From: a virus
IMG/VR virus record: IMGVR_UViG_650716055_000001
Coordinates: 1-28,125 of that record
Strand: one strand, 5' to 3'
DNA: 28,125 nucleotides
This document shows, in pieces, positions 1,245 through 27,289 of the stretch (position 1 is the stretch's first letter; each line of letters opens with the position of its first letter). Position numbers and translations under genes: made by a program. The notes under the pieces are model-generated. The model worked only from the letters and a program-made list of their open reading frames with translations, was not told the DNA's origin and made no database searches.

Positions 1245-3458
1245 TTATGATAATACCTTATACTTACCAGGTCTTACCTCCATTACCTCTCCAAAATTAC
1301 TTAATTTCTCCAAATACCTTTCTAACTGTTCCTCTGAAATGCCCTTTTTAGACAGTAATTCTTCCAAATCATAGAAACTAACAGGGGTATCCTTAGTCTG
1401 TTCTAAATGTTTAATCGCATCCTTAATTAAATCTAATTTCTCAACCTCAGACTTTGGAACGCCCCCTATTTTTGCGAAATCCAATAAACCAGTTTCGGGG
1501 TCTTTTGCTATTTCGTTGTAGCACTCCATTATGATATTTACTGCTTCTCTTGCATCTTCACCATCTGCAATCTCTTTAAGTTTAGCCTTTGCTATCGCTT
1601 CAGTTAGACGAGCAGCACTTTCCAACTGTCTGGGGGTGATACTTTCTCCTGCATCCTTAGTTTTTTGTCTTAATTCTACATAGAAGTCTTCTATTACATT
1701 ATCCGCCTCATCTGAAAGAAGCACTATTTTATTTGTGGCATATTGGATATACTTATAAATAAAATCAGGAGTTAATTTTATCCGTTTTCCATCTATCTCA
1801 ATTGTTTCCCCGTTAATATCCTCTTTTTTTACCAACTGCTTATTTAATCTTAAAATACGCTTTGCTATTTTTTTGTCTGAGTATCTATTTGCATTATCTC
1901 TTAAAGGAAATATTAAATCAAATCTCGATAGAAGTGCTTTTCCAATTTGGATTTGCTCCCATACTGTAAGTTCGGGGTCATATCTTCCACGCTTTGGATT
2001 GCATGCTGCCAAAATCGAGGTGTTGGTTGGTAGGACTGTTGATATGGATGCTTTATTAATGCTAAGTTTCATGTGTTCCATAGCTTCTAAAAGATAGTGT
2101 TCAATACTGCTCTTTGTTGTAAATTCATCAATACATGCGGTTCCGCCGTGTGCTTTTGGAATAACTCCTGGTTTTATAACCCATGTATCGTCTCCAATTT
2201 CGGTTTTAACTCGTTCTACTGTTGCGGTTAATCCAACTCCTGACGCTGTATTTACTGACGCATAAGTATTGCCTGGCATTTTTGCTATCTTTTGAAGCAT
2301 TATCGACTTGCCCACCCCAGGGTCTGTAATTAATAATATGTGTATTACATTTCGTTTTATTAATTTCTCTGTTCCTCTTATTTGTTGTAAAAATATTGCT
2401 TTTTTTATGGTTTCGTGCCCCTCTATCTCAGGGAACAGGTTTTTTGATAGAATGTCTATAACATTAGGTATCTTTGAAAGCTGTTTAATATCTTCCTCAT
2501 CTTCCTTTGAAATAGTGGCTTTCTTTGTGTTTTCAATTGGAATGATATTTATCGCTTTGATTATGATGTCATATACTGCCAGTTTCTTTGAACTTGCCAC
2601 TTTTATAGGAATTCCTATTACTTTTACCCTACCGCTGTATATTCCCTTTGCATTCTCATTGATTATCGTCATGTATCTTGGAGGGTCGTTTGGATTTTTC
2701 ATTTGTTCGATAGGCTGCTGGACTTTTAACTCCTGAAAATCCACATATTTTGAACCCTTCTCATCTAAATATGCCTTTTCTTTACATTTACAAGGAAGTT
2801 CTCTAACAGGATTTAAAGGGTCAATAGGTATAGTAAAGGTATTTCCACAGTTTGGACAGTAAAACTTCCCTTCTATTATTGCCGTTTTTAGTTTCGATGC
2901 CAGTGCTATTATTCCTTCAAATTCAACTAATTTATTTAGATTATTGCTCCTAATGTCCTCAATAGTTGTTGATGTGGGTAGTTTTTTAATCGTAACTACG
3001 GCGTCAGTGTCTTCATTGTTAAATGAATAATATGCTTCTTTGTATGCTTCCGATAAGAGAGTTAATGTTTTCTCAGGATTTTCAATTAACATATCTACAA
3101 CAGCTCCTAATCCTGAGCTTATTAGGTTAGAAGTATCTATCTCAACTAATTCCGAATCTGTTCTTATGTCTTCACTATGAGCAGTTTTAAAGAATTGAAT
3201 TAATTGAGATTTGTAAGTTAGTAATGCATAGTCATCTTCTTCCTTCTCTTCTTTCGGAGTTTCTAAGAGAGTGATAATTTTTTTATTATTGATGATTTCC
3301 TCCGAAATAACTCCTCTTTTAATTAGCCTGTCTTTTGTTGTAGATATTCCTCCTTTTGAATACCCTGCATCACATAATAATCTATATATATTATCCCATT
3401 CCATAGAGTGGTTTTGTGATTTTTTTAGTAAGTCGATAATTTCGTCAGCAATAGACAT
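1245..3458 (-). CDS. mcm: MCM replicative helicase with N-terminal wHTH-like extension
   Basis: Zn finger CPNC...CKC, Walker A TDPGVGKS, Walker B CIDEF, sensor AACNP, Arg finger LLSRFDL, ITPRQLE, C-terminal wHTH; about 65 extra N-terminal residues. Confidence 0.97.
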   Translation of the reverse strand: MSIADEIIDLLKKSQNHSMEWDNIYRLLCDAGYSKGGISTTKDRLIKRGVISEEIINNKKIITLLETPKEEKEEDDYALLTYKSQLIQFFKTAHSEDIRTDSELVEIDTSNLISSGLGAVVDMLIENPEKTLTLLSEAYKEAYYSFNNEDTDAVVTIKKLPTSTTIEDIRSNNLNKLVEFEGIIALASKLKTAIIEGKFYCPNCGNTFTIPIDPLNPVRELPCKCKEKAYLDEKGSKYVDFQELKVQQPIEQMKNPNDPPRYMTIINENAKGIYSGRVKVIGIPIKVASSKKLAVYDIIIKAINIIPIENTKKATISKEDEEDIKQLSKIPNVIDILSKNLFPEIEGHETIKKAIFLQQIRGTEKLIKRNVIHILLITDPGVGKSIMLQKIAKMPGNTYASVNTASGVGLTATVERVKTEIGDDTWVIKPGVIPKAHGGTACIDEFTTKSSIEHYLLEAMEHMKLSINKASISTVLPTNTSILAACNPKRGRYDPELTVWEQIQIGKALLSRFDLIFPLRDNANRYSDKKIAKRILRLNKQLVKKEDINGETIEIDGKRIKLTPDFIYKYIQYATNKIVLLSDEADNVIEDFYVELRQKTKDAGESITPRQLESAARLTEAIAKAKLKEIADGEDAREAVNIIMECYNEIAKDPETGLLDFAKIGGVPKSEVEKLDLIKDAIKHLEQTKDTPVSFYDLEELLSKKGISEEQLERYLEKLSNFGEVMEVRPGKYKVLS

Positions 3459-11587: not shown

Positions 11588-12457
11588 GTGGCAACACAGA
11601 GGGAATATATAGAAAATGCAATAACGGAAATAACAGATATTACAAACCATTCTAATGACCTTTATGATATTTTTAAAACCATTAAATTAAAAATCTACAC
11701 ACCCAACCTACCAGAGCCCCCCGAACTAGTTAAAAAAAGAATTAATGAATTTGAAGGTAAGTTGTTAGATATTGACCATGACGATTGGAACGGGGATTCA
11801 ATCGTTGGGAAGTTCCTGAAAACATGGTGGGATGATTCTACAAATGAAGGTTTTGCAGAAGTGGGGATATTTAATAAGGCAAAAGCAGTAGTAGATTTAA
11901 TTAAAGAAGGTAAAATTAAGTATTTTAGCCCCTCATTTTGGATTACATATTTAGGTGAAAACATTATTGATGTGCTTCCAAAGGGCGGAGCTCTGTGTCA
12001 ATATACTATACCTGATGACCCTGATTGTGGAGTTATAGACCATTCAAGGAGGAAAAATATGGATGATGAGATGATTAAGAAAATAATGGAAGAAAACACC
12101 CTTTTAAAACAGCAGTTGGAAGAAAAGGAAAAACAAATACAGTCTGTTTCAGCTTCACATTCTAAGACTATTGGGGAGCTCAAAGCAGAACATTCAAAAG
12201 AGTTAAAAGCAGCAGAAGAAAGGGGATTTAAAAAGGCAAAAACATTACTTGAATTGCATTCCAAGTATAACATTGATGAAGAAGTTGAAAAACAGCTTAT
12301 TGAAGCAATTGATAACAATGATGCATTGAAAGTTGCGGAATTAGTTCATTCATTGAAACCAAAGGAAAATGATGCCCTTGCAGTAGGCGAAGGGAACCAT
12401 TCCAATAATATGAGCCCCGAGGAGTATCTACAAAAATTAAGAAATGGGGAGCTATAA
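11588..12457 (+). CDS. Prohead protease fused to a C-terminal scaffold
   Basis: LDIDHD (His) and YFSPSF (Ser) resemble HK97/assemblin-like protease motifs; coiled-coil C-terminal half; lies before decoration and MCP genes; GTG start with GGTGG SD. Confidence 0.8.
   Translation: MATQREYIENAITEITDITNHSNDLYDIFKTIKLKIYTPNLPEPPELVKKRINEFEGKLLDIDHDDWNGDSIVGKFLKTWWDDSTNEGFAEVGIFNKAKAVVDLIKEGKIKYFSPSFWITYLGENIIDVLPKGGALCQYTIPDDPDCGVIDHSRRKNMDDEMIKKIMEENTLLKQQLEEKEKQIQSVSASHSKTIGELKAEHSKELKAAEERGFKKAKTLLELHSKYNIDEEVEKQLIEAIDNNDALKVAELVHSLKPKENDALAVGEGNHSNNMSPEEYLQKLRNGEL
12059..12457 (+). CDS. Nested in-frame scaffolding protein (132 aa)
   Basis: AAGGAGG SD a few nt before the in-frame ATG 12059 at the protease/coiled-coil boundary. 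Confidence 0.6.
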   Translation: MDDEMIKKIMEENTLLKQQLEEKEKQIQSVSASHSKTIGELKAEHSKELKAAEERGFKKAKTLLELHSKYNIDEEVEKQLIEAIDNNDALKVAELVHSLKPKENDALAVGEGNHSNNMSPEEYLQKLRNGEL

Positions 12458-12466
12458 GGTGATATT

Positions 12467-12793
12467 ATGAAGATTAATTATGCACCGCTATATACAACAG
12501 AAGGATTAATCACACTCAAAGGAAATGCAGCACCAGGAGAGGCAATATCTGCTGGAACAGTTATTGGGATTATTTCTGCATCAGGGGAGCTCTCACCGTA
12601 TAACAGCTCGGCTACTGACGGAACAGAAGTAGCAAGAGGTATTGCACTGTGTGATATTGATGCAGCAGATGAAGATAGAGACATAATATATGCGATAGCA
12701 GGAGCTGTTATTGAAAGCAAATGTATAGGCTTAGATGCAACCGCAAAAGAGGATTTATCAACGATATACTTTGTTAAAGATTCACAATTATAG
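12467..12793 (+). CDS. Head decoration protein (lambda gpD-like)
   Basis: AGTVIG...GELSPYNSSATDGTEVARGI matches the HDPD pattern; lies between protease and MCP. Confidence 0.85.
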   Translation: MKINYAPLYTTEGLITLKGNAAPGEAISAGTVIGIISASGELSPYNSSATDGTEVARGIALCDIDAADEDRDIIYAIAGAVIESKCIGLDATAKEDLSTIYFVKDSQL

Positions 12794-12802
12794 GTGGTAT
12801 AA

Positions 12803-13753
12803 ATGTCAGGAATTGATTGGAATAACCCAGCACTAAATTCATTAGCAATTAAGGGGATGATTAAGGAGTATGAAACCAACACCACGGAGCTCCCATATAG
12901 AAAAGTGATGCCAGTTGCTAATGTAAAATCAAAAACATTTTCAGAAATTGTTGATAAAAGCACAATCTTTGCAACTCCATCAACAGCAGCAGGAGCATCA
13001 ATTCAAACAGTAGATTTGGAAAAAGGATTAAAATCATACACTTGCGGTCTTCATGCACTAACCTTACCTTTGTTGGGTGAAGATAGGGGGCTCGCTCCTG
13101 TGGATTTAGTTCAGGATGCTGTTTTTAAGGAATTGGATGCGGCAAGATATGCTATTGAGGCGGAATTTGAAAACCAATTGGTGTCGAATATTCCAACCTC
13201 CAACAAGGTAGATGCCTCATCAGCAAAATGGACAGATGATACAAAAGACCCCATAAAGGTAATAAATAATGCAATCAAAGCAGTTAAAAAAGCATCTGGA
13301 TTAATTCCAAACGCCCTCATCGCTAAGGCGGATGTGATTGATGCACTGACAAGTAATGCAAACACAAGAGATTATATTAAATATATCCAGCCCAACGCAG
13401 TAGATGGAAATGGAACGCTGATAAAACTAAGAGGATTAACTATTATTGAAGCTCCCGAATCAATTAAAAGCGTAAATAATAAAGAGCTGTCTAAGTTTTC
13501 AAGCACATCAGTATACTTAACAGTTGCATCTAATGTAATATCAAGAGGAACAGGATATATCGCAACATATCCAACAAGGAAAGAAGTTCAGCAGGGAAAG
13601 ATATTGCAAAAGGCAAATAAGGATACCCCGCTTATTTTCAAATACATTGATGAGATGAAGGCAACGGGTGTAATTAATATGGTTTCAGAGCTCTCATTTA
13701 TTCCAGTTATCCAAAGACCAAATGCTACTGCCGAAATAAAATCAGTAATTTAA
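12803..13753 (+). CDS. Major capsid protein (HK97 fold, lambda gpE-like)
   Basis: KWTDDTKDPIKVI (WxxxxxDP) motif; size 316 aa; gene order. Confidence 0.88.
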   Translation: MSGIDWNNPALNSLAIKGMIKEYETNTTELPYRKVMPVANVKSKTFSEIVDKSTIFATPSTAAGASIQTVDLEKGLKSYTCGLHALTLPLLGEDRGLAPVDLVQDAVFKELDAARYAIEAEFENQLVSNIPTSNKVDASSAKWTDDTKDPIKVINNAIKAVKKASGLIPNALIAKADVIDALTSNANTRDYIKYIQPNAVDGNGTLIKLRGLTIIEAPESIKSVNNKELSKFSSTSVYLTVASNVISRGTGYIATYPTRKEVQQGKILQKANKDTPLIFKYIDEMKATGVINMVSELSFIPVIQRPNATAEIKSVI

Positions 13754-13763
13754 AGGTGTTATT

Positions 13764-14165
13764 ATGGGATATTGCACACCCGCAGAGCTCTACAACTTTC
13801 TAAAACTTAAAATTCAATATAAAGACATTGAAAACGACCTTAATTCTGCAATAACCGTGGCATCATCAAGGATTGATGCACAGGTAGGACTTATTGAGAA
13901 TCCTGATGAAGATACAAAGATACTATTAAAACGGGCATGTATGTATTATGCAGGAGCTGAAATATTAAGGCAATATTGGGAAGAATTACAGGTCGATAGA
14001 TACGAAATGCAAAAGGTTTCACAATATGAAGGAATGGGGGACGAGCTGACAAGAAACATATTAAATAAGTTAAAAGGAGTTCAGCAGATTACCACATCTA
14101 ACGATAATAACAAAGATACAAAAATAATTATTCCTTCATTTTTATATACGATTACAAATAGGTGA
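13764..14165 (+). CDS. Head-tail adaptor (Mu gp36/HK97 gp6-like)
   Basis: N-terminal YCTPAEL, helical bundle with ASSRIDA...LKRAC; directly after MCP. Confidence 0.7.
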   Translation: MGYCTPAELYNFLKLKIQYKDIENDLNSAITVASSRIDAQVGLIENPDEDTKILLKRACMYYAGAEILRQYWEELQVDRYEMQKVSQYEGMGDELTRNILNKLKGVQQITTSNDNNKDTKIIIPSFLYTITNR

Positions 14166-14170
14166 TTATA

Positions 14171-14956
14171 ATGGGTTCTACATCATATATTAATGGAGAT
14201 GGATATGCGAGATACACAGGGGGCGGGACGTTATTTATTAATGGAGAAAGCATAGCAATTGTAGAGTTTGAAGCAGAATTGAATCATAAAGAAATGCAGA
14301 CAGCCACTACTGCGGGGATTATAAAAGATGTTTCACAGCAGATAGATTTTAAAGGTAAATTCACCGATATAGCAGGAACACATAAGTTTTGGAGCATGTT
14401 TATGGGAATTGATGCTATGGAATCAACTGCTGAATCGTTATATTCTGGTGCTGGAACTGGTGCAGACCAAACGGCAACAGCTGATGCACAGCCAACGCTC
14501 CCATCTATTTTACAGATATCACTCTCTAAAAGTGGAACTACTGTTCCAACAATTACTCCCGATGCGATTGTAATTGCTGGAAAGGATGCATTTGGTAATA
14601 CAATTACTGAGAATTTCAATTATACTTGCCTTGAAACTATTGTTGGAAGTTTGTTATTTTCACAGATTGATAGTATTGCAATCCCTGGCACACTGAGCTC
14701 AGATACAAAAGTTACTGTTTCAACAGTTGCAGGTGTAAAAAGTGGAAAACCAACAATTGTTCCAAAATTCAACCTTCAAGGGTTTATAAAAGGGAGTGAT
14801 GGACACCTGCAAGGCGTACAAATGAAAAATGTAACAATACTTAATAAACCAAAATTTAAACTTGAAGGCAAGGAAGAACATATTAAAGAAGAAATTGAGT
14901 TTGTTTTATCAAATGCTAACGAAGACATAATATTCTATGAATATATACCTCAGTAG
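14171..14956 (+). CDS. Major tail tube protein with an inserted beta/Ig-like region
   Basis: Beta-rich, T/S/G-rich; precedes the chaperone and tape measure genes; GGTGA SD favours ATG 14171. Confidence 0.7.
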   Translation: MGSTSYINGDGYARYTGGGTLFINGESIAIVEFEAELNHKEMQTATTAGIIKDVSQQIDFKGKFTDIAGTHKFWSMFMGIDAMESTAESLYSGAGTGADQTATADAQPTLPSILQISLSKSGTTVPTITPDAIVIAGKDAFGNTITENFNYTCLETIVGSLLFSQIDSIAIPGTLSSDTKVTVSTVAGVKSGKPTIVPKFNLQGFIKGSDGHLQGVQMKNVTILNKPKFKLEGKEEHIKEEIEFVLSNANEDIIFYEYIPQ

Positions 14957-14964
14957 GTGGTTAA

Positions 14965-15339
14965 ATGGTAACTGTTGAAGAATACTTAAAAAAAGCATAT
15001 ACTACCGTAGAGCTCCCCAGTGGATTCAAATTCAAGATAAAAACATTATCCTCAATAGATGTTTTAAAAGTGATGGGAGATATTCCCTCAATACAGGAGA
15101 TGACAAACCTAAACAAAGAAGAAGTAAAGGAGAATGTGCAAAAGTTATCAGCGAATAAAGAATACACTAAGAAAATAATTGAAGTAGTTCCTGAATTGGT
15201 TGAAAAATCAATTATCGAACCAAAAGGCATAAAATGGGAGCAGTTAGACGGTAAGGATAAAGATGCATTAATGGAGTATATATTATCACAATTTACAGCA
15301 GATAAAAAAATATCATCCTTTCGTGAGAAAGAACAGTAA
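14965..15339 (+). CDS. Tail assembly chaperone (gpG-like)
   Basis: Lies between tail tube and TMP; VELPSGFKFKIKTLS pattern. Confidence 0.75.
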   Translation: MVTVEEYLKKAYTTVELPSGFKFKIKTLSSIDVLKVMGDIPSIQEMTNLNKEEVKENVQKLSANKEYTKKIIEVVPELVEKSIIEPKGIKWEQLDGKDKDALMEYILSQFTADKKISSFREKEQ

Positions 15340-15547
15340 ATTATTAGATGCTGTTGCTCAAAGATACGGCTGTCTCCCTTCTGACATTTTAAATCTTTCA
15401 GTTGTAGAATTTAACATAAATATTGCAGTTGCGGTTAATTCAGCAGATACAGAATCAGAGAAAAAAGGCTGTAAGGTAAAGGTTGTTGATAAAACAGAAT
15501 TAAACAATAAATATAAAGAATTATTGAGGAGGTATAATGCCCGTTGA
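15323..15547 (+). CDS. gpT-like extension, probably made as a +1 frameshift fusion to the chaperone (14965-15547)
   Basis: Overlaps the chaperone in the +1 frame; no SD before GTG 15323; TCC_TTT_CGT at 15316-15324; AQRYGCLPSDIL motif. Confidence 0.7.
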   Translation: MRKNSKLLDAVAQRYGCLPSDILNLSVVEFNINIAVAVNSADTESEKKGCKVKVVDKTELNNKYKELLRRYNAR

Positions 15548-15666: not shown

Positions 15667-17850
15667 ATGGTAAATATGGAAATAATTATTTCAGCAGTCG
15701 ATAAGGCATCAGCTGTATTGGAAAAGGTTCAAAGGAAGATGGATGTAATTAAAAACAAAACAGCAAGAATAGCAGAAACATTTAACAGAGTAGGTAAAGG
15801 TTTAGCTGTTGCTGGTGCTGGAATGACTGCATTTGCCACTCCTTTTGTTGCAGGAATGGCATCAGCAATAAATAAAGGAATAGAATTTGAACAGCAAATG
15901 AAAACAGTTCAGGCAGTTATGGGGGCATCACAGCAAGACTTTACAAAACTATCACAACTTGCGATGCATTATGGTGCAACAACAGCCTATACTGCATCAG
16001 AAGTAGCAGAAGCCATGAGGAATATGGCAGCAGCAGGAATGAAAACAAAACAGATATACGCATCGCTCGGTAGTGTTTTAACTCTTGCAACGGCAACACA
16101 GTCTGATTTAAACCTATCATCTGAAATTATTATTTCAACACTTGCACAGTTCAATATGAAGGCATCTCAAAGTGCGAGGATAATTGATGTATTTTCACAG
16201 GCTGTTGCTAATTCCCCTGCAAGACTTGGTGATTTACAATATTCTTTAAAATATGTCGGAGCTCTGGCTAATTCAATGGGATATTCATTAGAGCAAACAA
16301 CTGCTGCATTAATGATGCTATATAAAGCTGGAAAAAAAGGAGAAGAAGCAGGGACTGCATTAAGGGAAGTATTGTCACGCTTAGTTAATACGGGGGTGCA
16401 AAATAAATTAAAAGCATTAGGTATTAATGTCCTCGATTCAAATGGAAAATTAAAAGGCATGGGGACTATATTAGATGAAATAAAAAAGAAAGGACTATCT
16501 TCGGCACAAATATTATCGATATTTGGAACGGAAGCAGGGACTGCAATAAATATTATGCTAACACAGGGGGGAGATGCCTATAAAAAATATGTAAAAGTAT
16601 TGGATGATTCAAAAGGAAAAGCAGAAAAGACAGCAGATGAAATGAAAAACACAGTTCAATATAAAATACAGGCATTAAAATCAGCAATTGAAGGGATAAA
16701 ACTATCTATTTTTAAGGACAATAAAGGACAGATTAAAAAGTTTTTAGATGAGCTCATTAAAGCCATGCCTGCTATAAAAAAGTTTGTTGTCTCTATTTCA
16801 AAAGGGATGGCTACCGTTGGGAAAGTGATAGTTAAAGCCATTCTTCCATTGTTAAAAATATTTAACAATCTTCCTGCACCAGTTAAAAAAGCCATTGGAA
16901 TTTTTGTTGGATTGGTAGCTGCAATAGCTGCAATAGTTGGCCCTATTCTGTTGGTGGTTGGCGGGTTTGCAATGGCTATCTCTTCAATCAGTGAAGTAGT
17001 TGGTGCAATAGGTGGATTAAGTGCAGCAATTGGTGCAGTTTCAGGGGTAATATCATCGGTAATTACCGTAATAGGGGGCATTGTGTTAGCAATAAATCCT
17101 GTTATTCTGATAATCCTTGCAGTTGCTGTTGCAGTGGCAGCTTTATATTTAGCGTGGAAAAATAACTGGTTTGGGATTAGGGATACAATAAATGCAGTTG
17201 TTAAAAAAATAAAGGGGATATTAAGTAAATTAGCAGGAGCTTTAAAATGGGTAATTACTGAGATTAAAAAGCATACAAAGGATATTAAAAAAGCATTATT
17301 TACCGCATTGCTCGGACCATTTGCACCACTCAAAACAGCATGGGATAACAATCTCTTTGGAATTAGAGATAAGTTAAAAAAAGTATTTAATGAGATGATT
17401 AGTTACTTAAAATCATTACCTCGTAGATTTTATCAGGCTGGTGTAGGGATGATTAATTCACTTAAAAATGGAATTGAAAGCAAAATAAATGAAATTAAGC
17501 AAAAAATATTGGATTTACTTCATTGGATTGATAACCACCTACCCCACAGCCCTGCAAAAGAGGGACCGTTAAGCAGATTGGATAAAGTAGGTCCTGGTTT
17601 TATAGATACAATTGCAGAAGGGATAAATAAACATAAATCTAAAATCCAAAATGTAGTTGGGGGCATAACTACCACTATGGCAATTAATACACGATTAGGC
17701 AGAGCTCCTACAACGAGCAATGTACTCAACTATGGTGGAGACACGCAAACCAACTATAATGTGGCAATTAATGTTGTTGGTAAATCTTATGATGAGCAAC
17801 AATTAGCTAATCATTTGAATAAATTATTAAAAAAACAAATTTATAGGTGA
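15667..17850 (+). CDS. Tail tape measure protein (TP901/PhageMin_Tail-like)
   Basis: FEQQMKTVQAV...YTASEVAEAM...GEEAGTALR motifs; A/G-rich hydrophobic middle; W-spaced repeats; PHSPAKEGPL near the C-terminus. Confidence 0.95.
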   Translation: MVNMEIIISAVDKASAVLEKVQRKMDVIKNKTARIAETFNRVGKGLAVAGAGMTAFATPFVAGMASAINKGIEFEQQMKTVQAVMGASQQDFTKLSQLAMHYGATTAYTASEVAEAMRNMAAAGMKTKQIYASLGSVLTLATATQSDLNLSSEIIISTLAQFNMKASQSARIIDVFSQAVANSPARLGDLQYSLKYVGALANSMGYSLEQTTAALMMLYKAGKKGEEAGTALREVLSRLVNTGVQNKLKALGINVLDSNGKLKGMGTILDEIKKKGLSSAQILSIFGTEAGTAINIMLTQGGDAYKKYVKVLDDSKGKAEKTADEMKNTVQYKIQALKSAIEGIKLSIFKDNKGQIKKFLDELIKAMPAIKKFVVSISKGMATVGKVIVKAILPLLKIFNNLPAPVKKAIGIFVGLVAAIAAIVGPILLVVGGFAMAISSISEVVGAIGGLSAAIGAVSGVISSVITVIGGIVLAINPVILIILAVAVAVAALYLAWKNNWFGIRDTINAVVKKIKGILSKLAGALKWVITEIKKHTKDIKKALFTALLGPFAPLKTAWDNNLFGIRDKLKKVFNEMISYLKSLPRRFYQAGVGMINSLKNGIESKINEIKQKILDLLHWIDNHLPHSPAKEGPLSRLDKVGPGFIDTIAEGINKHKSKIQNVVGGITTTMAINTRLGRAPTTSNVLNYGGDTQTNYNVAINVVGKSYDEQQLANHLNKLLKKQIYR

Positions 17851-23907: not shown

Positions 23908-25947
23908 TCACTTAATAGGTTCTATGCGATATACTGGCGTACATCTACATCTCGGATGTATTGGCGGGATGATAGGGGCTTCATTAATTTCCCATTCTTT
24001 ATTGGCATATCCTTTACATATTGGACATACTTTACTATCTCCCCTCGTTATGATTTTAACATATACCTTATATTTCCCTTTGTGCTTTTTTGCAAATTCT
24101 TTATAATATTCATTTTCAGACCATGTTTTAGCCCTCCTTAATTCTGTTTCCACAATCCTTTGAGCATCTGCTTTTGTAGTTTTCAATGTATCCATTATTC
24201 TTTGTGTAATATTTGTATCCCCCACAGTATTGAGCTCTGAAACAATGATATATTTAAGTCTATTTTTCTGGTTTTCAGTTAGTTTAGTGCATAAATCCAA
24301 TGCGTAGTTTTTTACAAACTTCACAGCATCGCTATTTACATCTATTTGTAATCCCGTTCCTGCTACCACCGTATCTATTGCGGTGTTAATTTCTCCTTTT
24401 AGATTATTATCTATATCTTTGAAGTGCTCATCCAACATATTATTTAGTTCTATATAATTATCAACAGTAATTGATTTGTTCTTTTTCAAAAACTCTTTAA
24501 CATCATCATCAAATGCTATTGTTGCATTTTCAATATTATTCATTATTTTATTAGTGAGCTCCTCAACAATGACATTATCGGTGTCATCAGTTGGTATGTC
24601 TGAGTGCTGTGCTGGTTTTGTTGTTGTGGATTTATCGAATTCAATGTTTAAACCAAATTCTTTCATAACTTCAATTATTACATTCTCTTTAACTCCACAA
24701 TTTTTTAACTTTCCAATAATATCTGCCTGTTTATCCAATCTTTCTACTTTCTGATTTGTATCTTCAGGGTTTATATCTGCAAATTTTATCTTTACTCCAT
24801 TTCCGAACTTTCTGAATAATATAAAATTAATAAGTGCCGTAAAATCAGTTTGCATTCCTCGATATACTGCATTAAGATAATCTGCCACTGTTCGTGATGT
24901 TGCTAATTCCGAACCTCTCGCATCTATGAGTGCCATGCTCGATAACAGTGCATATGTTATTTGTTTGTCCAAAATAGAAATTGATGTTTCATATATCTGT
25001 GGATTAATAGCCTTACCTGCTTCAATCGTTTTAAGTTCAAGGAATGGGTCTGTAAATAATTCCTTCCTCTCATCCCAATTCTCAAACTCTTCCGATAACT
25101 GCTCTAATTGTTTTTTAAAATTATCATAAGCTTTCTTAGCAACCTCATCATTGGGGTCTGCTGGTGGAGTTGGAAACATTGGATTTCCATCTTTATCAAA
25201 CTTTCCAACTATGCCATGGATGAACGGTGCGGAATATCTCATAATTGTAGTGGGCATCCTCCTAATTATGTCCCACTTTGCCAAAACATATTCAATACAT
25301 TTATCTATTACCGAGCCACCGTTCCTTTTGAACCATATTATATTTTCTGCCTTTCCAACTTCTGCACCGTTGGTTTTGATTTTATTTCGAAGCTCCGAGG
25401 GTACGAAGTATATCGTTTTAGATTTAGCATTCCCTTGCAGGTCTTCATAGTTAGCCGTTTGGATAAAATAAACTTCTCTATCGTCGAAAGGGCTTTTTTT
25501 AACCTCCATTGTTGTTGGGTCTATTCTCTGGATATACTCGACTTCACCGTTCTTATACCTTATTTGTGCGAAACATTCCCCATATATTAAATAATCAATA
25601 AATATCTTTTCCAATATGCTGTCTCCGTGTAGATTTGTGTTAATTAACCCTATCTCATTAATCCAATTTTGCACCTTTTCTTTAAGTGTATCATTGTCAG
25701 CAATTATTTCATAGCTCTGGAATAGTTTATTTTTCAATGTTGTTATTGTGAGATTAACCGTAGCATCGTATTTATATATCATTTCTTTGAATGCAGGGTC
25801 TTCTAATAATTGAGCGTATTTGGTGGAGCCTATGGTTGTAGGTCTTTTGTAGTTTGATAAGTGCTGTATAACAATATCATCGTCTTTCGTATTTTCAGTA
25901 ATGGCATTATTATCTTTTGAATGTCCCCAAACTGCTGTAAAGAACAT
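23908..25947 (-). CDS. Portal protein fused to a C-terminal MuF (SPP1 gp7-like) head morphogenesis domain
   Basis: Portal-like DYLIYGECFAQI...IQRIDPTTM; C-terminal RAQRIVETE...GDSKVCPIC...PPIHPRCRC-type MuF signature. Confidence 0.88.
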   Translation of the reverse strand: MFFTAVWGHSKDNNAITENTKDDDIVIQHLSNYKRPTTIGSTKYAQLLEDPAFKEMIYKYDATVNLTITTLKNKLFQSYEIIADNDTLKEKVQNWINEIGLINTNLHGDSILEKIFIDYLIYGECFAQIRYKNGEVEYIQRIDPTTMEVKKSPFDDREVYFIQTANYEDLQGNAKSKTIYFVPSELRNKIKTNGAEVGKAENIIWFKRNGGSVIDKCIEYVLAKWDIIRRMPTTIMRYSAPFIHGIVGKFDKDGNPMFPTPPADPNDEVAKKAYDNFKKQLEQLSEEFENWDERKELFTDPFLELKTIEAGKAINPQIYETSISILDKQITYALLSSMALIDARGSELATSRTVADYLNAVYRGMQTDFTALINFILFRKFGNGVKIKFADINPEDTNQKVERLDKQADIIGKLKNCGVKENVIIEVMKEFGLNIEFDKSTTTKPAQHSDIPTDDTDNVIVEELTNKIMNNIENATIAFDDDVKEFLKKNKSITVDNYIELNNMLDEHFKDIDNNLKGEINTAIDTVVAGTGLQIDVNSDAVKFVKNYALDLCTKLTENQKNRLKYIIVSELNTVGDTNITQRIMDTLKTTKADAQRIVETELRRAKTWSENEYYKEFAKKHKGKYKVYVKIITRGDSKVCPICKGYANKEWEINEAPIIPPIHPRCRCTPVYRIEPIK

Positions 25948-25951
25948 ATAA

Positions 25952-27289
25952 TCACCTCAAAGTGTAAGCATAGTTATTGATTATCTTAGTATGTTTTGAT
26001 TCAGCAGCATAAATTGCAAGAGCTAAACTCATAACGCAGTCATCATGCTGTCCATTCCCCTCACAAGATAATTGTGTTTTTCTTTTAACATATCTGAAAT
26101 ATTTCAGTTCAGTTATAAGCTGGTCGAGATATGGGAACAATACTTCATTTTTTACAATAGATGTTTGGAGTTTTGTAATAAGTGGGAGTTTGTTTTTACT
26201 CGTAAAAGTAAATCCAATTGGATTTAGAGATTCTACCTGTTCAACTACTGCCGCACCAGGTCCTGTTGCATCCATACATACTTGCGGTTTATTAAACAAT
26301 TGGTATAATTCTTTAACTTTATCTGCAACAAATGAATACGGCATTAAATTAAACCGTTCGAAATAAACGAGTTTATATGGTTTTACACTCACATCAAGTA
26401 CTGTAATTACTGTATAATCCTCAAATTTTGCCAAATCTACACCCATTACATATTGATGCCCGCTTTCTCCTGATTTTAATAGTTTAATGGTGCCATCAAT
26501 ACACTGCTGAATATACTCCCAATTAAATACCGCCTCATTATTATCAATGAACTCTGCACAATACTCCTGTTTCCAAACTGGCGAATCTTCCCCAACTTCC
26601 TGCTTAATCTCTTCAATTGCATTTTTAGGTAAGAAAGGATTTGTCCAGGTTGGAAACCTAAATGAAATATGTCTGTTTTGTTTATTTTTCCCCATTAAAA
26701 ATGACTCATAAAAATGGTTATGCCCGTTGGGTGTTGAAATTTCAATTAATGGAGCATCATAATCCAATAAAAGTGGCTTAATTACATATTTCACTACATC
26801 ATCTTTGATGAATGCAGCCTCATCTAATATAACAAGATGATAGCTCTCTCCTCTTATGGATGTTGGATTATCTGCACTTCTAAAATCAATAGTACAGCCT
26901 GTTTTAAATTCAATAGCCATGTATGGGGATTCAACCATTCTCTTAACTAATCTACTTAGTACATTGCTTTTTTCAATGTATTTTTTTAGCTCCCTAAATA
27001 TAATTCTTGCATTGGCATAGAATGGAGCTATTACAGCATATTTCTTATTTTTTTGAGTACTACATAAGAATATTAGCAAAAATGCCATTAATTTTGATTT
27101 ACCAAACCTACGGCCTGCAGCTACTATAATTGTTTTATATTTCTTTGAGATATATGCATCAATTATTTTTTGTTGTGCGGAATGTAATTTTTCTTTAAGT
27201 ATTGCAGCTACAAAGAATTCTAAATCTGTTTTTAGTTTTGTTTTTAAGTCTTGTGCTGAATATTGTCGTAGTTTGGTACTGATTGACAT
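25952..27289 (-). CDS. terL: Terminase large subunit
   Basis: AGRRFGKS (Walker A), VILDEAAF (Walker B), STPNG, WKQEYCAEF, GVDLAK and HDDCVMSLALA (RNase H-like nuclease). Confidence 0.97.
   Translation of the reverse strand: MSISTKLRQYSAQDLKTKLKTDLEFFVAAILKEKLHSAQQKIIDAYISKKYKTIIVAAGRRFGKSKLMAFLLIFLCSTQKNKKYAVIAPFYANARIIFRELKKYIEKSNVLSRLVKRMVESPYMAIEFKTGCTIDFRSADNPTSIRGESYHLVILDEAAFIKDDVVKYVIKPLLLDYDAPLIEISTPNGHNHFYESFLMGKNKQNRHISFRFPTWTNPFLPKNAIEEIKQEVGEDSPVWKQEYCAEFIDNNEAVFNWEYIQQCIDGTIKLLKSGESGHQYVMGVDLAKFEDYTVITVLDVSVKPYKLVYFERFNLMPYSFVADKVKELYQLFNKPQVCMDATGPGAAVVEQVESLNPIGFTFTSKNKLPLITKLQTSIVKNEVLFPYLDQLITELKYFRYVKRKTQLSCEGNGQHDDCVMSLALAIYAAESKHTKIINNYAYTLR

Follow-up and report, generated by a model that had tools for sequence, protein, structure and literature searches.

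The 289-residue protein encoded at positions 11588..12457 of a tailed provirus of a Methanococcales archaeon is best read, at the level of the fold, as a capsid-maturation protease fused to a scaffold, and nearly all of its histidines are directly followed by serine. We consider it likely that this assemblin-fold protease, with His64 and Ser114 as its catalytic residues, cuts itself and the coiled-coil scaffold to which it is fused at these His-Ser marks after the shell has assembled. Related proviruses carry other dipeptides at the homologous places, and to us it is an even question whether the P1 preference of the family has shifted at least two times between Ala, Phe and His, with every capsid substrate site changing in step. 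In the following, the window denotes the whole stretch of DNA that was analyzed, 28,125 nucleotides in length.

The genes of the window that provide the context for the protease-scaffold gene are the following:

1245-3458: MCM-like helicase
12467..12793, plus strand: head decoration protein, lambda-D-like (PF02924, E 7e-13)
12803..13753, plus strand: major capsid protein, with matches to PHROG major head proteins
15667-17850: tape-measure gene
23908..25947, minus strand: portal protein of the Mu type fused to MuF (Pfam Portal_Mu and Phage_Mu_F), likely a second substrate of the protease
25952-27289, minus strand: large terminase

The protease-scaffold gene is thus followed by the decoration protein and then by the major capsid protein, while the portal-MuF and terminase genes lie in a facing operon, i.e. 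the gene stands in a head module. The shell itself is probably not processed, because the capsid protein has one histidine, the decoration protein has none, and neither of them contains His-Ser.

We now consider the protein itself, for which these features are needed:

11588..12457, plus strand: protease-scaffold fusion gene, 289 aa, with a GTG start 4 nt downstream of an AGGTGG Shine-Dalgarno sequence
11651..12043, plus strand: core of the protease (residues 22-152), which has the assemblin / T4 gp21 fold and His64 as its sole internal histidine
11777..11779, plus strand: codon of His64, the putative catalytic histidine, invariant in 11 sequences and across all lineages
11927..11929, plus strand: codon of Ser114, the putative nucleophile, likewise invariant in the 11 sequences and across all lineages

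Residues 1-160 were modeled with AlphaFold (pLDDT 75, pTM 0.74). In VIA-align, the model of the N-terminal domain superimposes on T4 gp21 (5jbl) with a Z score of 10.0 and an rmsd of 3.9 over 130 aligned residues. The next best matches are the proteases of VZV (Z 6.9) and HCMV (Z 5.8), with unrelated folds reaching at most about 5.6. In Foldseek, gp21 and the assemblins come out on top, at a probability of 1.00, and the matches in BFVD comprise dozens of prohead proteases, down to E 4e-8. The nearest clusters in the ESM Atlas are Mu-like_Pro, which is the closest, Peptidase_S78 and DUF2213. The structure matches assign the modeled domain to the assemblin fold, the seven-stranded beta-barrel of capsid-maturation serine proteases such as T4 gp21, HK97 gp4, Mu gpI, P2 gpO and herpes assemblin.

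Seven residues, namely His64, Ser114, Asp63, Lys58, Gly74, Cys137 and Pro142, are invariant over eleven sequences and then also over five lineages. Among these, His64 and Ser114 are the candidate catalytic residues. The spacing of 50 residues between the two resembles that of HK97-type proteases. Two candidates for a third catalytic residue were considered and rejected. His152, which would complete a herpes-like triad, is replaced by Phe in the G017-type proteins and is absent in the relatives G002 and G005; the Ser-His-His triad of the herpesvirus enzymes is therefore unmatched, since His152 is the only candidate for the second histidine. Asp27, which could be the Asp of a triad like that of P2 gpO, is invariant in the 11 sequences, but G002 and G005 lack this part of the protein.

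Curated profiles do not detect the family. None of 7 members searched matched a Pfam protease family at E <= 5, and the PHROGs protease families gave nothing except a chance-level match (E 0.14) of one member to a head maturation protease PHROG. The relative G002 is the sole member with a match to Phage_GPO (E 0.02), which at 14.9 bits against a cut-off of 33.6 is below threshold. A sequence profile search of the PDB gave no protease match. The family is also small, as only 4 clusters were found in a search of 1.84 billion proteins and 7-9 proteins in word-indexed searches. No homologue was found by tblastn against 50,697 phage records or in two scans of viral contigs, and a metagenome scan for P0009, one of the relatives, gave nothing. 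One relative locus belongs to a Methanothermococcus single-cell genome.

Taken together, the fold, the invariant residues, the gene context, and the fact that the scaffold is a separate gene in some relatives lead us to read the protein as a capsid-maturation protease-scaffold fusion, an assignment that the modeled structure supports at the fold level. The initial annotation had already proposed this identity, and it is borne out by the fold, by His64 and Ser114, and by the head module.

For the scaffold part, the model shows a long helix at residues 160-226 followed by short helices up to residue 289. Three features in this part of the gene are relevant here:

12047..12061, plus strand: candidate internal start, consisting of AGGAGG, a 6-nt spacer and ATG (Met158), present also in the homologue L001
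12059..12457, plus strand: candidate nested scaffold ORF, residues 158-289, which is a separate gene in relatives (P0010 and the G017 scaffold)
12401..12454, plus strand: C-terminal tail, residues 272-289, conserved among relatives

The AGGAGG-N6-ATG spacing equals the Shine-Dalgarno spacing of the other late genes. Among the relatives, G005 has GAGGGA before Met139, six residues past its first site, and G002 has no such nested start. These signals make it probable that a second scaffold lacking the protease is made from the Met158 start. By analogy with the scaffolds of herpesviruses and P22, the conserved tail would be the end that binds the capsid.

The striking property of this protein is the distribution of its histidines. 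According to a script run on the 289-aa translation, they are found at residues 21, 64, 152, 191, 202, 224, 254 and 271, and in 7 of the 8 cases the next residue is serine. The exception is His64, which stands between two aspartates (Asp-His-Asp). The seven His-Ser sites are all on the plus strand:

11648..11653, plus strand: His21-Ser22, in the loop before the protease core; relatives have His-Ser or Phe-Ala within 3 columns
12041..12046, plus strand: His152-Ser153, in the disordered tail that ends the protease domain, a position like that of a release site
12158..12163, plus strand: His191-Ser192, in the scaffold helix, in a column shared with His-Ser of P0010 and with Phe-Ala of the G017, L009 and L010 scaffolds
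12191..12196, plus strand: His202-Ser203, in the scaffold helix, retained in P0009
12257..12262, plus strand: His224-Ser225, where the long helix ends; P0009 has Phe-Ala in the same column
12347..12352, plus strand: His254-Ser255, absent in P0003-5 and present in P0006
12398..12403, plus strand: His271-Ser272, 18 residues ahead of the C-terminus, a position like that of a maturation site, in a segment of low pLDDT (261-272)

The initial annotation had listed the same seven sites, with codon positions identical to those found here, and had put the chance expectation at well under one. From 8 His and 15 Ser we calculate an expectation of 0.42 (binomial p = 8e-9), and among 200,000 shuffles of the ORF not one gave seven His-Ser, the maximum being five. 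The background for the dipeptide statistics was the genome, consisting of two contigs of 1,662,525 and 14,930 bases. It shows no general preference for this dipeptide (observed/expected = 0.97), and the ORF is the top His-Ser outlier among its 1580 ORFs, by five orders of magnitude. When all dipeptides in all ORFs of the whole genome are considered, it is still the most extreme of 53,229 tests, with a Bonferroni p of ~4e-4. The excess is thus genuine and holds up after correction for the look-elsewhere effect.

As regards the structural environment, the models place three of the seven sites inside the long helix, and the sites at 152 and 271 in segments predicted to be disordered; residues 141-160, which cover His152-Ser153, have pLDDT < 50. 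There is no extended consensus around the sites. The least conserved of them is His254-Ser255, since it is lost in P0003-5 though kept in P0006.

Close relatives of the protein (65-84% identity) retain the His-Ser sites even where the flanking residues vary. In P0006 and P0007 the last site is displaced by two residues and is still His-Ser. The more distant P0009 (36% identity) has serine after 6 of its 10 histidines (p = 2e-5); one of these sites aligns with His152, and four lie in a scaffold region that can otherwise barely be aligned. P0010 is a stand-alone scaffold of 138 residues, in which all 4 histidines are followed by Ser, Thr or Ala. This scaffold and the protease P0008 both have 8,124 bases as the length of their longest contig, which suggests that they share one contig.

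The dipeptide is a different one in a sister lineage. The G017 provirus, from another family of the same archaeal order, encodes a 272-aa protease and a separate 147-aa scaffold, neither of which contains any His-Ser. In an unbiased scan, Phe-Ala is the top dipeptide of this scaffold, where Ala comes after 6 of 8 Phe (p = 1e-5) and Gly after the remaining two. The metagenomic relatives L009 and L010 likewise have Phe-Ala as the leading dipeptide of their scaffolds (p = 2e-5 and 2e-4), as do the proteases of G017, L010 and L008 (p 8e-4 to 4e-3), and it leads in no further ORF of those loci. Phe-Ala and His-Ser occupy the same alignment columns. At the end of the protease domain, His152-Ser153 and Phe151-Ala152 of G017 are both exactly 15 residues past the invariant cysteine. 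The site ahead of the C-terminal tail agrees within one or two columns, where P0006, P0007 and P0010 have His-Ser within 2 columns of His271-Ser272 and the G017-type scaffolds have Phe-Ala.

This pattern was put to a prospective test, the prediction being that in each further lineage these places would be occupied by a dipeptide peculiar to that lineage, with a small second residue. Such lineages were sought by a family-profile search of 40 genomes of the archaeal order, which yielded G002 and G005. In G002, a fusion of 369 residues, Ala-Ser is the top dipeptide (9 of 28 Ala, p = 1e-5). In G005, a fusion of 247 residues, Leu-Ala and Ala-Ser both come out on top, because all four of its Ala-Ser sites read (Val/Ile)-Leu-Ala-Ser. 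The first of the four, at residue 132, stands where the protease domain ends, those at 173 and 197 are in the scaffold, and the one at 226 is 21 residues short of the protein's C-terminus. In the two proteins Ala-Ser is found 20 and 23 residues past the invariant cysteine, and about 21 residues from the C-terminus. [quoted passage not shown] The internal head proteins share a short dipeptide, significantly repeated there and rare elsewhere, which does not end in Glu.

The replacement of one lineage-specific motif by another at homologous places suggests a joint change of specificity in the protease and its targets. It supports the view that His-Ser is a cleavage motif co-evolving with its protease, and hence also the earlier suggestion that HS is the recognition site, which we nevertheless regard as an inference. 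A check for HS in homologues, which the initial annotation had called for, shows that the dipeptide is kept in the close relatives and in P0009 and that Phe-Ala or Ala-Ser replaces it at homologous positions in other lineages. It is important to note that the covariation rests on few independent events, since the family consists of about five lineages, all from one archaeal order. The dipeptide alone cannot suffice for recognition either, because the shell proteins of the Ala-Ser and Phe-Ala lineages contain these dipeptides as often as expected, and P0008 and G002 carry the dipeptide also inside the folded protease core, including beside the putative catalytic serine. Depletion of the motif in the shell proteins gave no signal, at low statistical power. 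As for how a P1 histidine could be recognized, Asp143-Asp144, directly after the invariant Pro142, is present in all His lineages; the Phe lineage has Lys-Met in its place, and the Ala lineages have Lys-Val. One may speculate that this acidic pair forms the pocket for the P1 histidine.

The portal-MuF protein provides a further place at which the motifs can be compared. It has two His-Ser sites:

24601..24606, minus strand: His448-Ser449, in the linker that joins the portal domain to MuF, retained in L005 though the flanks vary
25918..25923, minus strand: His9-Ser10, near the N-terminus, retained in L005; G017 has Phe-Gly one column off

The linker is poorly conserved, and in an alignment of four lineages the same column of it shows the motif of the respective lineage: the window has His-Ser there, G017 has Phe-Ala (twice), G002 has Ala-Ser, and G005 has Leu-Ala-Ala. 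This supports a splitting of the portal-MuF fusion by the protease, as read from the alignment.

Other explanations of the dipeptides have to be weighed against cleavage by the viral enzyme. The initial annotation had cautioned that a DNA-level CATTC motif might lie behind the pattern, as all seven sites are CAT-TCN; they are also locally dense, accounting for 7 of the 26 plus-strand copies of CATTC in the window. That caution does not hold up. In the L001 homologue, which is 80% identical, the His codon is CAC in two of the His-Ser sites and the Ser codon is another one in several, and TCN makes up 75% of the Ser codons in the late genes, such that seven out of seven has p = 0.13. Moreover, the excess recurs at 36% identity, and other dipeptides replace it at the same positions of the protein. 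The latter two observations speak equally against a chance or compositional effect, as does the rank of the ORF as the top dipeptide outlier of the genome, and we give a DNA signal or chance hardly any weight. An N-glycosylation sequon was considered as well, because several sites read Asn-His-Ser. It was rejected, as the histidine of other sites is preceded by Asp, Ser, Glu, Leu or Val and the proteins are presumably intracellular.

Two further explanations accept the dipeptides as protein motifs. In one of them they are never cut and serve as contact or packing motifs, an aromatic or imidazole group plus a small residue, that bind the shell or the internal proteins together. Several sites are spaced 11 and 22 residues apart along a predicted coiled-coil helix, which would fit this, and one pocket could take either His or Phe. 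However, the same motif is found in disordered linkers, where the protease domain ends, and in the linker of portal and MuF, the residue in question is Ala, a poor knob, in two lineages, and the G005 sites resemble assemblin cleavage sites, which makes a contact role unlikely in our judgment. In the other, the dipeptides are cleavage marks for a protease of the host, with the motif varying from host to host. There is precedent for this in the host enzyme Prp, which cuts the scaffold and capsid proteins of the staphylococcal phage 80-alpha after Phe. The His-Ser, Phe-Ala and Ala-Ser lineages do reside in different host genomes, and the viral protein has no match to any curated protease family. 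On the other hand, it has a capsid-protease fold with invariant His and Ser, the motif marks the border of the protein's own protease domain, in the manner of the self-releasing assemblins, and G017, G002 and G005 are grouped in one genus and yet have two motifs among them. We rate a host protease as less probable still than a contact role, and cleavage by the viral protease thus stays the preferred explanation.

In the mechanism that we propose for the viral protease, the C-terminal tail of the scaffold would carry the fusion enzyme into the procapsid. The protease-less scaffold is probably co-produced from the internal AGGAGG-ATG at Met158. After assembly of the shell, cuts would most likely be made between His (P1) and Ser (P1'). 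The scissile bond is placed here, and not after the serine, because of the Ala|Ser precedent of the herpesviruses and because the second residue of the motif is always small (Ser, Ala, Thr or Gly). Cutting at 21/22 would trim an N-terminal piece of 21 residues, and cutting at 152/153 would liberate the protease core of 131 residues. The cuts in the scaffold would yield peptides of 11-39 residues that are able to exit the shell, and the one at 271/272 would remove the last 18 residues, i.e. the putative capsid-binding end. If all His|Ser bonds were cut, the computed pieces would be of 21, 131, 39, 11, 22, 30, 17 and 18 residues. Finally, a cut in the portal linker would separate the MuF domain from the portal.

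This scheme predicts where the mature virion proteins begin and end. Sequence is enough to recognize the sites, which differ cleanly between related viruses at homologous positions, and with a protease core of ~130 aa the family offers a compact natural system for the co-change of a viral protease and all its substrates. To our knowledge, cleavage specificities have been established for few head-maturation proteases and for none of archaeal viruses. In the literature searched, neither this provirus nor a His-Ser site of a head protease is the subject of any paper.

It is instructive to compare the proposed scheme with the systems that have been characterized. P2 gpO, Mu gpI/gpZ and lambda C/Nu3 are similar in that a single gene, nested or fused, provides both protease and scaffold. 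The window also resembles Mu in its portal with MuF, and lambda in its decoration and capsid genes. The protein differs from those of P2, Mu and lambda in having no profile match above threshold, and the cleavage motifs of these phages are, as far as we know, not His-Ser.

T4 gp21 is the best structural match, and in T4, too, a short motif is repeated in the internal head proteins. The gp22/gp67/gp68 type of core protein maturation involves such a motif, with the scaffold chopped small and the portal and other internal proteins cut as well (PMC7411985). Cleavage by T4 gp21 and by phiKZ gp175 / SPN3US gp245 takes place after Glu, in (Leu/Ile)-x-Glu or Ala-x-Glu (PMC7411985). The motif of the window, in contrast, is a dipeptide of His, Phe or Ala plus a small residue; in addition, protease and scaffold form a single fusion protein and the major capsid protein seems to stay uncut, unlike in T4, phiKZ and SPN3US.

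The herpesvirus assemblin precursor (UL26 / UL26.5) shares with the window protein the fold and the position of the protease N-terminal to the scaffold in a fusion, and its P1' residue is small, as is the predicted one of the window protein. In both cases there is a site, a putative one in the window protein, where the protease domain ends and another ~20 residues from the C-terminus, ahead of a capsid-binding tail that is likewise putative here, and the probable in-frame nested scaffold begins, as in UL26/UL26.5, a few residues past the release-like site. The R and M sites of the herpesviruses are cut between Ala and Ser/Thr, the maturation cut parting the scaffold and the tail with which it binds the capsid (PMC4498786). 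Ala-Ser is also the dipeptide at the sites of the relatives G002 and G005, and in G005 it is preceded by Val/Ile-Leu, which resembles the R and M sites. The differences are that the virus of the window is archaeal and has a shell of the tailed-virus type, that the P1 residue would be His (Phe in the sister lineage), that five further sites lie within the scaffold, that the Ser-His-His triad has no counterpart, and that sequence similarity is not detectable.

The fold, the gene fusion, the nested scaffold and the motif-directed destruction of the scaffold are thus already known from other viruses (T4 gp21, phiKZ/SPN3US; PMC7411985). What is new is an archaeal protease family that is invisible to curated profiles (Pfam, PHROGs), a predicted P1 histidine, found for no characterized head protease in the literature searched, and an apparently clean switching of the motif between Ala-Ser, Phe-Ala and His-Ser at homologous sites. 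If the scheme is correct, the Leu-Ala-Ser sites of the G005 type would tie the processing of archaeal tailed viruses directly to the R and M sites of the herpesviruses.

The portal-MuF fusion carries two His-Ser dipeptides:
24601-24606, - strand, His-Ser in the interdomain linker, the lineage motif (the dipeptide read as a candidate cleavage mark)
25918-25923, - strand, His-Ser at portal residues 9-10
In the linker, all four lineages compared have their own motif (His-Ser, Phe-Ala twice, Ala-Ser and Leu-Ala-Ala). At residues 9-10, the counterpart in G017, a genome of the same archaeal order, is Phe-Gly, one column off.

We now consider the preference for P1, the residue before the presumed scissile bond, for which one feature of the protease is a candidate pocket determinant:
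12014-12019, acidic pair Asp143-Asp144, following the invariant Pro142
The pair is found only in lineages whose motif begins in His; the Phe lineage has Lys-Met at this position, and the Ala lineages have Lys-Val.

The head and neck proteins encoded at 12467-15547 are nearly devoid of His, the genome average being 1.6%. There is none in the decoration protein or in the ORFs at 13764, 14965 and 15323, and the only one in the capsid protein, residue 84, is followed by Ala.

Related head-tail proviral modules are present in two other genomes of the same order as the host:
G005:C1:304000-320000, locus L016
G002:C1:1449000-1465000, locus L017
No ribosome-binding site precedes the TTG annotated as the start codon of the G002 gene, so translation may really begin four codons further downstream, at a Met.

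The protease family is fluid in its domain architecture. In some relatives a DUF6582 domain, which may be capsid-internal, follows the protease domain and either replaces or precedes the scaffold:
L007 (the locus of one relative), 15754-16572, - strand
P0008, a homologous protein
L017, 6537-7646
The metagenomic homologue P0007 has a 30-residue deletion directly after the equivalent of His152-Ser153, the site ending the protease domain. Both the first scaffold site and the region around Met158 are lost with it, so that P0007 may be a defective copy.

Within the protease-scaffold gene there is an internal start signal:
12047-12061, AGGAGG, 6-nt spacer and ATG (Met158)
Met158 lies six residues past His152-Ser153, and the signal is kept in L001, the locus of the 80%-identical homologue. 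The spacing is that of other late-gene ribosome-binding sites in the window. The stretch 12059-12457 is likely a nested scaffold gene, and this candidate would resemble the nested scaffold genes lambda Nu3, Mu Z and herpes UL26.5.
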